The position numbers and the translations under genes were made by a program. Positions 11,619 through 63,075 of a stretch of DNA of 64,000 nt are shown piece after piece (positions within the stretch are counted from its first letter, which is position 1; every line of letters starts with the position of its first letter). This stretch comes from Elusimicrobiota bacterium (GTDB taxonomy: Bacteria; Elusimicrobiota; Endomicrobiia; Endomicrobiales; JBDRNC01). The notes under the pieces were generated by a model. It saw nothing but the letters and a program-made list of their open reading frames with translations, did no database searches and was not told the origin of the DNA. The stretch spans positions 108,455-172,454 of the forward strand of contig JBDRNC010000018.1 of assembly GCA_043811535.1 (NCBI GenBank). The letters are read 5' to 3'.

Positions 11619-11690
11619 GTTGAACTCCTTAGCGTTAGAATAAACTGCCGTATGTGAAATCCGCCGTGGCGGAAACTCACCTCTCTATTA
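11619..11690 (-). promoter_or_regulatory. Conserved 5' leader motif copy (more diverged) upstream of the small membrane protein gene 11442..11618
   Basis: CCGCCACGGCGGATTTCACATACGGCAGTTTATTCTAACGCTAAGGAGTTCAAC-GTG. Confidence 0.45.
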
Positions 11691-11768
11691 ATTAGGAGTA
11701 CCCGCCAGGATATAACCGCTCCTTTGAAACCGTGATCCCACCCCGTAGGTTGGATACTCTTGGTTCAG

Positions 11769-13004
11769 TTATTTTGAATGCGGAACATCCGCCGAAGGCA
11801 ACTCGACCGTGAAGACCGCTCCCTTGTCGTACTCACTCCGCGCGTGGATCATGCCTCCGTGCTGGCGGACGATCTTGTAAGACAGACTCAAACCGAGACC
11901 CGTGCCCTCGGCATAAGTGGTAAAGAAAGGTTCGAACAACCGGTCAATCTCGCCCTTCTTGATGCCCGGCCCGTTATCCGATATCTCTATAATGACAGTT
12001 TTTCTCTTGTACGAGGTGCTTATCCTGATCTCTTTCGCCCTGTTCTCGCGCTGCGACACAAGAGCGTGGCGCGCGTTCTCTAGTATGTTTATTAAAACCT
12101 GCTCAAGCGACTGGGCGTTTCCCGAAACAGCCGGCATATCTGGCCCGAGATCCTTTCTGACGCTTATATTATCGAAGACAAGCTGTTCTCCGGTAAGCGA
12201 AAGGGCCGATTCCACAACGTCGTTGACGTTCAGCAACAACCGCTCGGGCGCTTCGCCCAATCTGACGTAATCCATTATATTCTTAATTATGCGCGAGGTC
12301 TTTTCTGAAGCCGAGACAATATTTTCCCACAGTTTCTGCCGTTCCGCTTCGTCATGTTCCTTTCGCAGTTCGCCCGAGTATCCAAGGAGGACGCACAAGG
12401 GGTTCCTTATCTCGTGCAGGACCGCGGCAAGCATTTCGCCGAGTGCGGATAAGCGTTCCATGTGCGCGACCTGTTTTTCCGCGGCCCGCCGTTCCGCGTC
12501 AGAGTAATATAGGAATATGAATGAAATGATGAAAAAGAACGGGATACGCAGAAGGAGCACGGTATTATTCAAAGAAATCTCGCCGCCCCTCAGCGACACC
12601 AGAGCGCCGTATACGACTACGACCACTATCGTCATCACGAACGCGTGCCCGATGCTGTTCCTTCCGCCGGCCATGAAGATCATTAAAAAATAAACCAGAT
12701 AAAGGTCCGAATCGATGCCATGGCTGAAATAGATAAGTAAGGATATCAGGACTAAGTCCAGCATGAAAAGCGATATGCGGAACCAGCGCAGAGAGAAATA
12801 GCGCCGGTCAATGAAGATGAAAGCCACATTCGACAGCGCGTATAGCGAAAAAATAAGTATCAACGGTTTCAAACTGTACACCTTATTGGCGTCAAAGCCA
12901 TACATAACAAGAAAAGCGCAAACGATGATAACCAGGAAACGGAGGGTTATCAGCACACTCTTATCATTCAGCGCAAATGCCTTTTTAGTCAATGGACTAT
13001 TCAT
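11769..13004 (-). CDS. Sensor histidine kinase (multi-TM N-terminus, HisKA, HATPase_c); no cognate response regulator adjacent
   Basis: H-box LSALGEMLAAVLHEIRNPL and G-boxes DNGPGI...GTGLGLS, with about 6 N-terminal TM helices. Confidence 0.8.
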   Translation of the reverse strand: MNSPLTKKAFALNDKSVLITLRFLVIIVCAFLVMYGFDANKVYSLKPLILIFSLYALSNVAFIFIDRRYFSLRWFRISLFMLDLVLISLLIYFSHGIDSDLYLVYFLMIFMAGGRNSIGHAFVMTIVVVVVYGALVSLRGGEISLNNTVLLLRIPFFFIISFIFLYYSDAERRAAEKQVAHMERLSALGEMLAAVLHEIRNPLCVLLGYSGELRKEHDEAERQKLWENIVSASEKTSRIIKNIMDYVRLGEAPERLLLNVNDVVESALSLTGEQLVFDNISVRKDLGPDMPAVSGNAQSLEQVLINILENARHALVSQRENRAKEIRISTSYKRKTVIIEISDNGPGIKKGEIDRLFEPFFTTYAEGTGLGLSLSYKIVRQHGGMIHARSEYDKGAVFTVELPSADVPHSK

Positions 13005-13090
13005 AGTTTTTTGGCGTTTAGCGTACGGCGTATCACCTTAAGAGGTCGTCTTCTGTTTCCCGCTTCCTGCTCCCTGCTTCCTTCTTCCGT

Positions 13091-61645: not shown

Positions 61646-61697
61646 GATTACACTGATTTCAAACAGAGATTACACTGATTATAATCTGTGTAATCGT
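61646..61697. repeat. GATTACAC 13-mer array upstream of the cysK leader, with a 28-bp near-perfect palindrome GATTACACTGATTATAATCTGTGTAATC
   Basis: Seen directly. Confidence 0.75.
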
Positions 61698-61715
61698 AGT
61701 TAATAATCGGTGAAA

Positions 61716-63008
61716 TCATGCCCTCTTAAGGGCATTCTCTATATCCGCGATTATGTCGTCAATATGCTCAAGCCCTATCGATAACCTGATAAAGTCGGGC
61801 GTGACGCCCGTCGCGAGCCGCTCTTCCTCGGACAGCTGCTGGTGCGTGGTCGTCGCGGGATGTATAGCGAGCGTTTTCGCGTCGCCTATGTTCGCCAGGT
61901 GAGAAACCAGCTCAAGTGACTCAATGAACTTCTTTCCCGCCGCCACTCCGCCCTTTATACCGAAACCTATTATCCCACCTGAACCGTGCTTAAGGTACTT
62001 GTCGGCTTTTTTCTTCTCCGGACTCGAATCCAGTCCCGGATAATTAACCCAGGAAACCTTTGGATGCTTTTCAAGGTACTTTGCCACGGCGAGCGCGTTC
62101 TCGGAATGCCTTGGATACCGCAAATGCAGGGTTTCAATCCCCTGAAGAAGCAGAAAAGAATTAAACGGCGATATAGCCGGGCCGAGGTCCCTGAGCAGAA
62201 CCACGCGCGCCTTTATAATGTAGGCGATGTTCCCATGCGGTTTGAGCGCTTCCACAAAATTAATGCCGTGGTAGCTCGGGTCGGGGTCGGCAATCAGAGG
62301 AAACTTGCCGTTCGTCCAGTCGAACTTGCCCGAATCCACAATAACGCCCCCGAGCGATGTCCCGTGGCCGCCGAGGAACTTGGTTGCGGAATAAACGACT
62401 ATATCCACCCCGTGGTCAATAGGCCTCAGTGTGTAGGGCGTTGAAGTATTGTCCAACACGAGAGGAATGCCGTTCTTGTGGGCTATCTTTGAAAGACCTT
62501 CAAGGTCGGCTATGTCCAGCTTCGGATTTCCCACCGATTCCGCGTAGATGGCTTTCGTCTTGGGCGTTATTGCCTTTTCAAAGGCCGGGAGGTCGTTTGA
62601 TTTGACAAACTTCACTTTTATTCCGAATTTAGCGAACGTGTTATGAAAAAGGTTGTAGGTCCCGCCGTATAAGTTATCCGCGGAAACTATTTCGTCACCC
62701 GCTTGCGTTATATTAAGGAGCGCCAGCGTTATTGCCGCCTGGCCGCTCGCAGTCGCCAGAGCACCCACCCCGCCGTCCAGCAGGGCTAACCTCTTCTCAA
62801 GCACGTCAGTTGTGGGATTCTGAAGCCGCGTGTAAATGTTTCCGAACTCCTTAAGCCCAAACAGATTCGCTGCGTGCTCAGTGCTCTTGAACTGGTACGA
62901 CGTTGTCTGGTAAATCGGCACTGCCCTTGACCCCGTTGTAGGATCAGCTTCCTGGCCTCCGTGTAATGCAAGTGTTTCAGTCTTAAGCCTTGAATCAATC
63001 TTAGTCAT
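61716..63008 (-). CDS. metY: O-acetylhomoserine aminocarboxypropyltransferase (OAH sulfhydrylase)
   Basis: Cys/Met-metabolism PLP fold ([16 protein letters not shown]). Start at MTKIDSR (AAGGAGG upstream). It has the conserved leader. Confidence 0.85.
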
Positions 63009-63075
63009 TTTAGCCTCCTTGAACACCTTAAGTGTTATTGTTGAATTGCCTTATGTGAGGTCCGCCGTGGCGGAC
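63009..63075 (-). promoter_or_regulatory. Conserved 5' leader motif copy upstream of metY
   Basis: CCGCCACGGCGGACCTCACATAAGGCAATTCAACAATAACACTTAAGGTGTTCAAGGAGGCTAAA-ATG. Confidence 0.55.

Follow-up and report, generated by a model that had tools for sequence, protein, structure and literature searches.

What is a short repeated sequence doing when it lies directly in front of eight unrelated genes and supplies each of them with its ribosome-binding site and start codon? The question is raised by a 64,000-nucleotide stretch of DNA from an Elusimicrobiota bacterium (assembly GCA_043811535.1, contig JBDRNC010000018.1, positions 108,455 to 172,454; the whole stretch is called the window below, and positions are counted from its first letter), for which a preliminary description had reported a conserved leader beginning with a GC-rich hairpin. 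The answer put forward here, tentatively, is that the element is a lineage-specific dispersed leader cassette, which would be transcribed as part of the mRNA and act in cis to raise the expression of the cistron downstream.

The window contains eight copies of one element of 58-89 nt, all on the minus strand, all intergenic, and all sense to the following gene and terminating at its start codon; start codon and ribosome-binding site (RBS) lie inside the repeat in every copy, with a Shine-Dalgarno (SD) sequence 4-7 nt before the start. The 25-nt core recognized in the preliminary description has five matches at up to 3 mismatches, against 0.00 expected in the window, which rules out chance, and a shorter core combined with inspection recovered the motif directly upstream of all eight genes that had been named. 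Pfam confirms the identities of six of these as genes for P-II (glnK), glutaredoxin (grx), rubredoxin (rub), TerC (terC), a PALP enzyme (cysK) and a Cys/Met PLP enzyme (metY); the two paralogous membrane peptides (small membrane proteins 1 and 2, smp1 and smp2; 53-58 aa) match no Pfam family. An nhmmer profile built from the eight copies scores them at 53-69 bits and its next match in the window at only 7.4 bits, so that the family is discrete, without half-copies or a graded series of weaker ones.

Read 5' to 3', a copy consists of the GC hairpin, a 24-nt conserved block (ATTTCRCATAAGGCARTTYA), a linker, AACRC, another linker, an SD-like GGWGYTC, in some copies a second SD, and the start codon. 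The hairpin stem is 6-7 bp, usually with a tetraloop, and the loops are of UUCG, CACG or UGAC type; the rub and cysK copies have the same outer stem, AUCCC/GGGAU, around a longer loop. Five of the eight copies have an SD-like GGAG(G) 5-8 nt 5' of the hairpin, followed by a short A/U-rich stretch, and on its other side the hairpin is followed by AUUUC, AUGUC or ACCUC. As RNA the block reads AUUUCRCAUAAGGCARUUYA (about 24 nt) and is near-invariant; the linker from block to AACRC is variable, at 3-8 nt, and that from AACRC to GGWGYUC is 4-5 nt. A literal AACAC...GTGTT is present in four copies and a degenerate one in the other four.

The copies fall into two spacing classes. In the short class (rub, cysK, terC, smp1 and a ninth copy from a second organism, on metagenome contig L008) the start codon is 4-6 nt past GGWGYTC, the GGWG of which is the working SD, and the distance from TAAGGCA to the start is 33-34 nt in the window copies and 36 nt in L008. 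In the long class (smp2, glnK, grx, metY) there is a second SD, CAAGGAG(G), with the ATG 6-7 nt later, and the same distance is 43-45 nt. The uniform orientation claimed for the motif holds throughout, and the single distance of about 40-50 nt to the start codon claimed with it divides into two. The copies are as follows:

Copy 1, 11616-11674, minus strand: smp1; hairpin TCCGCC-ac-GGCGGA, block ATTTCACATACGGCAGTTTA, AACGC, SD AAGGAG, GTG start; short class; 53.2 bits.
Copy 2, 15086-15155, minus strand: smp2; hairpin ATCCCC-tgac-GGGGAT, block, AACAC, GTGCTC, second SD AAGGAGG, ATG; long class; 61.7 bits.
Copy 3, 23048-23116, minus strand: glnK (P-II), in the 303-nt amtB-glnK spacer; hairpin ATATCC-tgac-GGGTAT, with a compensated A-T pair and a U.G wobble; 62.5 bits.
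Copy 4, 32962-33029, minus strand: glutaredoxin (grx), in the 94-nt rubrerythrin-grx spacer; its left extension CCGGAGGTTA (33030-33039) is common to the cysK copy; 68.7 bits.
Copy 5, 36165-36253, minus strand: rubredoxin (rub), in the 191-nt fur-rub spacer; outer stem ATCCC/GGGAT with a 38-nt loop, AACAC-AGGAG-GTGTTCC-ATG; short class; 59.7 bits.
Copy 6, 41511-41568, minus strand: terC, with its start likely the ATG at 41513 rather than the TTG at 41525; hairpin ATACCC-ttc-GGGTAT, GAGGAGCTCA-ATG; short class; 57.5 bits.
Copy 7, 61561-61628, minus strand: cysK, in the 152-nt metY-cysK spacer; left extension CCGGAGGTTAAA; 58.0 bits.
Copy 8, 63006-63075, minus strand: metY; hairpin GTCCGCC-ac-GGCGGAC, its outer pair G-C where other copies have A-T (compensated); 61.7 bits.

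There may also be a decayed copy at ~11400-11440 (minus strand), upstream of a GH5 cellulase gene, with a degenerate hairpin (TTCG...AATTGCATT) and the sequence ACCCTGACGGGCACTTCGATTTAATTGCATT; it is below profile detection and has not been counted. The small membrane peptides themselves (11442-11618 and 14927-15088, minus strand) have only five homologues among 5.8 billion proteins, and the C-terminus of smp1 seems to be frameshifted relative to that of smp2.

Which part of the element is under selection as structure? The GC hairpin is the sole consistent structure predicted by RNAfold (-5.4 to -10.8 kcal/mol). When six copies are aligned in register, 97% of cells are paired, compensatory changes occur at three of the six pairs (A-U/G-C, C-G/A-U, C-G/G-C), and the covariation score is 0.52 against 0.21 in shuffles, none of 500 shuffles scoring as high; in slid registers, pairing falls to 19-53%. 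The support for selection on pairing in the hairpin is real but thin, the alignment comprising six copies with about three independent events and one loop base padded in terC for register. The U.G wobble of the glnK copy pairs only on the sense strand.

The preliminary description had instead stressed the AACAC/GUGUU stem, which it took to suggest that access of ribosomes is regulated, and had proposed checking it for covariation across copies. No compensatory change was found there: 6 of 45 cells are broken, pairing is no better than in shuffles, the free energy is 0 to -3.1 kcal/mol, and the stem is not formed in smp1 or terC, so that its role in regulating access is not supported. A riboswitch- or thermometer-like riboregulator in which this stem hides or exposes the SD is thus highly improbable. 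It would fit the rub and cysK copies, where the SD AGGAGG does lie in the loop and 3' arm of AACAC-AGGAG-GUGUU, but the working SD is outside the stem in four copies, and there is neither an aptamer-sized conserved structure nor an Rfam match. Whole-leader z-scores are -1.7 to +1.6 and the tail is predicted to be largely single-stranded, which suits a landing pad for ribosomes or a protein rather than an aptamer. At gathering threshold, the Rfam covariance models matched nothing in the window except a thiamine pyrophosphate (TPP) riboswitch at 47336-47446, and permissive Rfam scans over two copies gave chance-level matches only (E >= 0.3). Two further candidates were tried and rejected: an intrinsic terminator, since the hairpin is followed by AUUUC, AUGUC or ACCUC in place of a U-run and 0 of 8 copies were flagged in a terminator scan, and a leader-peptide or MIRU-type open reading frame (ORF) through the element, since stop codons interrupt the frames and none is open in all copies.

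Is the element transcribed, or is it where transcription begins? As the preliminary description had pointed out, canonical sigma-70 promoters are present elsewhere in the window; three were located, one of them with an adjoining palindrome, and the element does not match their consensus:

63245-63217, minus strand: sigma-70 promoter TTGACA-17-TATAAT, upstream of the metY copy.
36806-36778, minus strand: sigma-70-like promoter TTGACA-17-TACAAT, in front of fur, which opens the oxidative-stress operon carrying copies 5 and 4.
18968-18996: sigma-70 promoter TTTACA-17-TATAAT.
63190-63245, minus strand: promoter plus palindrome GTCTAT-N7-ATAGAC, given as context and outside the repeat.

The metY copy sits about 140 nt downstream of its perfect sigma-70 promoter, in a 5' untranslated region (UTR) of about 200 nt. 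This promoter and its operator are conserved in a relative, contig L009 (1006-1053, TTGACAaataaacatccatatacTATAATgtctataaagcagatagac; window 63245-63198, TTGACAaataacaggccatatacTATAATgtctattaagaagatagac). The distance from operator to SD and ATG is about 30 nt in L009. In the window it has grown to about 165 nt, which hold a pair of hairpins, a mini-ORF, a stretch rich in A/T and, finally, the element. Because it lies downstream of a conserved promoter and operator, the metY copy is probably transcribed. Among the explanations offered earlier, this favors the two at the RNA level, a riboregulator or regulator target and a stabilizing hairpin, and disfavors the third, a promoter for an alternative sigma factor. 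The regulator that uses the palindrome as its operator is probably the Rrf2-family protein whose gene lies downstream of cysK (60024-60473). The mini-ORF (MKRMCRS-stop, with a strong SD, GGGGGAGG; 63111-63150, minus strand), between operator and cassette, might encode a methionine- or cysteine-sensing leader peptide, or might be there by chance.

An internal promoter is nevertheless worth setting out, unlikely though we consider it. An alternative sigma factor or an activator-dependent RNA polymerase would read the block together with the hairpin's 3' arm and start near AACAC, much as in the REP2 repeats of Neisseria; each gene would then have its own short-leader transcript, with the hairpin insulating it from upstream transcription or terminating the latter. 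A stretch of ~24 nt with strong linear conservation and no predicted RNA structure, 15-30 nt upstream of the SD, is what such a promoter might look like; structured repeats upstream in the same spacers could be non-canonical terminators; the REP2 and Borrelia IR repeats, in the account given of them in PMC3184786, are a precedent for repeats that carry promoter, RBS and ATG together; and, by inspection, TTCACA in the block matches TTGACA at 5/6 positions in one copy and 3-4/6 in the others. Yet no sigma-70 hexamer pair passes the scan inside any of the eight elements, the best -10 (AACACT) being 3/6 with a spacing of 16-20 nt, and inspection found no in-register sigma-54 GG-N10-GC or sigma-28 pattern. 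A promoter has no need of the hairpin's 5' arm, which covaries in fixed register; as a terminator, a hairpin followed by AUUUC is a poor one and went unflagged in the scan; and a second promoter in metY would bypass the conserved operator, as would one at rub in its position behind fur. Candidate sigma-54, sigma-28 and extracytoplasmic function (ECF)-type promoters were each rejected by inspection on spacing and key bases. In seven of the eight spacers the upstream gene and the element have no hairpin-plus-U-run terminator between them. Together, the lack of terminators and of a sigma-70 pair, the operator bypass and the sense-strand hairpin favor an RNA-level role, short of proof.

How did the copies come to be where they are? 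Loci of relatives were retrieved through homologues of MetY, AmtB and the small membrane proteins, and the syntenic contigs among them (AmtB 81-85%, MetY 90% identical) are without the element; MetY and AmtB of the window itself are 100% identical to proteins of an NCBI genome labelled "Elusimicrobiota bacterium". In L009, whose metY is 90% identical in protein and 76.5% in nucleotide sequence, cysK starts 10 nt after metY; the metY-cysK spacer of the window is 152 nt long and ends in the element. Contig L012 (AmtB 81% identical) is syntenic with window positions 23000-36800, the common gene order being fur, rub, ferritin, ferritin, fprA, rbr, grx, trxR-like, dfx, rbr, POR, then amtB and glnK, and three of its junctions are the counterparts of element-bearing spacers:

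fur-rub junction: 12-13 nt in L012; 191 nt in the window, ending in the element.
rbr-grx junction: 0 nt in L012; 94 nt in the window, ending in the element.
amtB-glnK junction: 12 nt in L012; 303 nt in the window, ending in the element.

Most junctions of the syntenic operon are in fact longer here, 30-199 nt against -8 to 47 nt in L012, with the rub-ferritin overlap kept in the window. The element was not found in the other AmtB relatives (L010 and L011) or in four contigs with homologues of the small membrane proteins (64-83% identical). This comparison of filled and empty sites shows the copies as gains, the cassette having been inserted, to judge from these contigs, into formerly compact transcription units of this lineage. 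The nitrogen, sulfur and redox functions of the genes had hinted at a global regulon; with the same genes in the same operons lacking the element in the closest relatives, such a regulon is not ancestral, and the idea can no longer be held in the form of an ancient regulon.

The copies also resemble one another in ways that cut across gene function. Those of rub and cysK are identical from GGGGATGTCACATAAGGCA through AACACAGGAGGTGTTCCATG, up to the ATG; those of smp2 and terC have TTTAGTAGAAACACTT in common; those of smp1, grx and metY have the CCGCCACGGCGG hairpin in common; and those of grx and cysK have the same left flank, CCGGAGGTTAA. These shared sub-family features indicate copying between loci. 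A degenerate partial copy, GGGGTTTCGCACAAATAAAAC, lies ~25 nt upstream of the intact glnK copy, and the same spacers hold other repeat or hairpin families: hairpins built of the word GATTACAC, CCACCTTAATCCTCCCCCACAAGGGGGGA, and CUUAAG-centered hairpins, among others. The element is thus one of several intergenic repeat families that inflate the spacers, and the gene set may reflect sites at which insertion was tolerated or useful rather than a shared physiology.

Would a purely selfish or neutral repeat then suffice? Such a repeat (resembling repetitive extragenic palindromes, REPs, or miniature inverted-repeat transposable elements, MITEs, or spread by gene conversion) could be tolerated at start codons through its own SD, with no dedicated regulatory role. 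The absence of the element from the orthologous sites of all relatives examined, the sub-families common to unrelated genes, the degenerate copy near glnK, and the inflated junctions with their other repeats all agree with it. The way in which the copies differ does not: divergence is position-specific, with a near-invariant block, linkers that vary in sequence and length, and compensated stem changes, and this, together with a recognizable copy in a second organism, L008, points to purifying selection on the copies. The L008 copy is conserved at 37.8 bits despite a different GC content (56% against 49% in the window), all eight window copies have one orientation and one position relative to the start codon, terminal inverted repeats and target-site duplications were not seen on inspection, and searches of viral contigs, plasmids and phages turned up no copy. 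A neutral repeat is for these reasons rather improbable. By its own terms the preliminary description would have been refuted had the motif proved to be the end portion of a mobile repeat, as frequent within genes as outside them and lacking a preferred orientation. This is not what is seen, since all eight copies are intergenic and sense, but the element still behaves as a dispersed, copied repeat.

Candidates among known mobile units were tried as well. A MITE was rejected by inspection, the left flank GGAGGTTAA and right end TTAAGGTG not being reverse complements and no consistent direct repeat flanking the copies; an integron attC site was rejected because the element is too short and the genes are syntenic housekeeping genes. 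The 64-kb window contains no transposase gene, including no RAYT gene.

Beyond the window the element is rare. Among 185,579 species-representative genomes the pattern TAAGGCARTTYAN{3,6}AACACNNNNGGTG has four matches, in unrelated taxa and at 12-16 bits on the profile, which is chance level. The pattern GSGKAYBTCRCRTAAGGCARTWYA found one true copy in JGI metagenomes, that of L008, which stands between atpG and atpD in a spacer of 68 nt. The single match in viral contigs is 22 nt long, antisense to a coding region and without hairpin or SD, and about one of this kind is expected by chance. A full-text literature search for the element's sequence returned only unrelated PCR primers, and no paper linking Omnitrophota with promoter or intergenic motifs was found.

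The other repeats of the spacers deserve a brief description of their own. Hairpins of the short words GATTACAC and GTGTAATC fill spacers at, for example, 61636-61717, 40330-40423, 22404-22560, 58139-58233, 24654-24706 and 761-857, and further word repeats are CTTCCGTCTTCC, GAGATACGAG and GGACCCTGGACC. A second repeat family is represented by a 37-nt sequence, TTCCTCCCCCCTTGTGGGGGAGGATTAAGGTGGGGGG, present at 23205-23241 and 36277-36313 (97% identical), that is, upstream of the cassette in the amtB-glnK and fur-rub spacers. CUUAAG-centered hairpins, GCCGGCACTTAAGTGCCGG and GGGACTTAAGTCCC, stand directly before the SDs of the desulfoferrodoxin gene and fprA (31555-31575 and ~34880, minus strand), and may be another family of leader hairpins.

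What, then, could the cassette do? The reading we favor, tentatively, is that of the mRNA leader introduced at the outset, and one possible sequence of events runs as follows. Transcripts reading through from the upstream gene or promoter would carry the cassette; an endonuclease might cleave them immediately 5' of the hairpin, where the RNA is unstructured, leaving a stem-loop at the 5' end of the downstream mRNA; this stem-loop, and 30S subunits held on the SD-like boxes, would protect the message; and the downstream gene would be translated strongly and independently of translation upstream. A ribosome-holding or standby role would also account for the additional boxes that resemble an SD, namely the UAAGG of the block, GGUGYUC, and GGAGG further upstream. 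The expected outcome would be expression of the downstream cistron above that of its upstream neighbor: rub above fur, glnK above amtB, cysK above metY, grx above rbr, and atpD above atpG. As candidates for such an up-shift these pairs make sense: a regulator followed by an abundant redox protein (fur-rub), a transporter followed by its P-II protein (amtB-glnK), metY followed by cysK, and the ATP synthase gamma followed by the beta subunit, of which the enzyme contains one and three, respectively. The position of the rub, grx, glnK and cysK copies at junctions that are 13, 0, 12 and 10 nt in the tight operons of relatives speaks for this model, as does that of the only copy found elsewhere, between atpG and atpD.

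Several points weigh against this leader model. Each of its RNA-level steps is one that we infer; the stretch 5' of the hairpin is just modestly A/U-rich, at 62% against 51% for the window; other highly expressed genes of the same operon (dfx, rubrerythrin, POR) are preceded by different hairpins and not by the cassette; the L008 hairpin is irregular and consists partly of atpG coding sequence; and the whole sample is nine copies from two organisms. Above all, a generic stabilizer has no need of a near-invariant single-stranded sequence of 24 nt, which points to a sequence-specific partner, be it a sigma factor, a protein or a small RNA. Since the leader model leaves this near-invariance unexplained, such a partner remains plausible.

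In one form of this idea the block is the docking site of a single trans-acting regulator, an RNA-binding protein or small RNA, and the copies make up a post-transcriptional regulon. A near-invariant unstructured sequence beside a structural anchor would be a suitable target; AAGG-type motifs occur three times, the SD being one of these; the genes are enriched for small proteins of redox, sulfur and nitrogen metabolism; and TD-1 of Treponema denticola, a species-restricted 5' motif before many unrelated genes (PMC1950547), is a precedent. We regard this, too, as rather improbable. The complement of the block occurs in the window at chance level (19 loose matches, 17.5 expected), and by inspection the block has no signature of a CsrA site, GGA in a loop; the regulon is not common to relatives, and atpD, terC and the two membrane peptides misfit a single physiology. 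An antisense or complementary partner inside the window was rejected as a candidate on the same 19 matches. In a bolder form, a copy-and-paste leader would recently have rewired this lineage by landing at start codons within existing operons. A single trans-acting factor with specificity for the block, perhaps an RNA-binding protein dedicated to it, perhaps a small RNA or a sigma factor of unusual type, would thereby control nine or more unrelated genes, for redox, sulfur and nitrogen functions, ATP synthase beta and membrane peptides. This is improbable on present evidence; if it were true, a regulon would have been built by mobilizing a UTR, and not by the point evolution of single sites.

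Some other features of the window may be recorded here. The TPP riboswitch (RF00059; 47336-47446, minus strand; 56.6 bits) is upstream of thiM (46300-47154) and thiE (45562-46221), and a tandem duplication of 45 nt, perfect in sequence (47424-47468 and 47469-47513), runs into its 5' end. Three perfect palindromes resembling bidirectional terminators, AAGGGGACGGTTCTATTT...AAATAGAACCGTCCCCTT with T-runs on both sides, are found at 16172-16222, 17393-17443 and 18908-18958. The last 31 nt of the glutaredoxin gene (32640-32670) are duplicated (94%) at 32728-32758, 88 nt downstream and before the trxR-like gene. A 71-nt direct repeat (24807-24877 and 27623-27693; 90% identical) flanks a gene for an 861-aa protein with a PPDK_N domain (25017-27602); L012 does not have this gene, so that an insertion, or duplication of the region upstream, may be suspected.

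Should the leader model hold, the cassette would be a natural, portable "insulated ribosome-binding site": a module of ~60 nt that uncouples a cistron from its upstream neighbor and raises its expression. It would show how a lineage can adjust the stoichiometry of its operons through the spread of a single leader, with no need for the junctions to evolve one by one, and the cassette would be a candidate part for synthetic operon design. To our knowledge, there is almost no molecular genetics of the Elusimicrobiota, and the model, if true, would give a first view of post-transcriptional control in the phylum; should the element be a promoter instead, it would represent an unknown promoter class for the group. 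The evidence from syntenic relatives, with filled sites on one side and empty ones on the other, is unusually clean.

How does the element compare with known systems? REPs and bacterial interspersed mosaic elements (BIMEs) of Enterobacteria and Pseudomonas (PMC3184786) are likewise short, GC-rich, extragenic palindromes in intercistronic positions that can stabilize adjacent mRNA; they differ in consisting of a ~35-bp palindrome only, in both orientations and clustered, not fused to an SD and start codon. TD-1 resembles the element in being restricted to one species, in standing, with its tens of copies, usually 5' of unrelated genes, and in showing some covariation, but it has multiple hairpins, and the element matches neither TD-1 nor any other Rfam family. 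MIRUs (mycobacterial interspersed repetitive units; Supply et al., 1997, as cited in PMC3184786) are, in what is said of them there, repeats of 40-100 bp between genes of polycistronic operons and co-transcribed with these, with GC-rich internal inverted repeats and sites that are empty in relatives, comparable to the 0-13 nt of L009 and L012 against 94-303 nt here; unlike the element, in which no frame is open in all copies, they are described as containing small ORFs that overlap the flanking genes.

Closer in architecture are single leaders that stabilize mRNA. In the STAB-SD sequence of cryIIIA and in the aprE leader, ribosome binding is joined to a stem-loop at the 5' end (refs 106 and 109 in PMC3997798), and as summarized there these leaders include SD-like sites of which some are not used for initiation, comparable to the GGTGYTC box in the four long-class copies; in that summary they are characterized in Bacillus (Firmicutes), block 5'-end-dependent decay, and belong to single genes rather than a repeat family. 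When RNase E cuts the papBA transcript, or those of other E. coli operons, upstream of a hairpin between cistrons, the cistron downstream is stabilized (PMC5927463), and the furA-katG mRNA is processed and then stabilized by a polypurine SD-like tract and translation initiation (PMC2358910). Here too a hairpin precedes a cistron that needs higher expression than the one upstream (cf. fur-rub), and an SD-like purine tract lies by the start; those systems, however, are at single loci, unrelated in sequence and often within the upstream coding region, whereas here one cassette occupies at least eight loci and cleavage is a proposed step. By analogy, the architecture of the element is compatible with a 5' stabilizer of the papBA or STAB-SD type.

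As a repeat, the element has its best counterparts in REP2 of Neisseria (Morelle et al., 2003) and IR-A/IR-B of Borrelia (Dunn et al., 1994), which, according to the passages devoted to them in PMC3184786, are dispersed repeats with RBS and ATG at the 3' end, stem-loop(s) near the 5' end and no terminal inverted repeats, placed directly upstream of many unrelated ORFs, and are thought to be a copied 5' UTR or regulatory region; all of this could be said of the present element. REP2, as described there, is 120-150 bp long with two stem-loops and a recognizable promoter, and its genes are co-induced on contact with host cells; the element, at 58-89 nt, has one hairpin and no promoter that could be recognized, lies mostly at operon-internal junctions, shares no sequence similarity with either family, and comes from a different phylum. 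The nearest known kind is nonetheless the class of REP2 and IR-A/IR-B, with leaders of the papBA type as the other close analogues.

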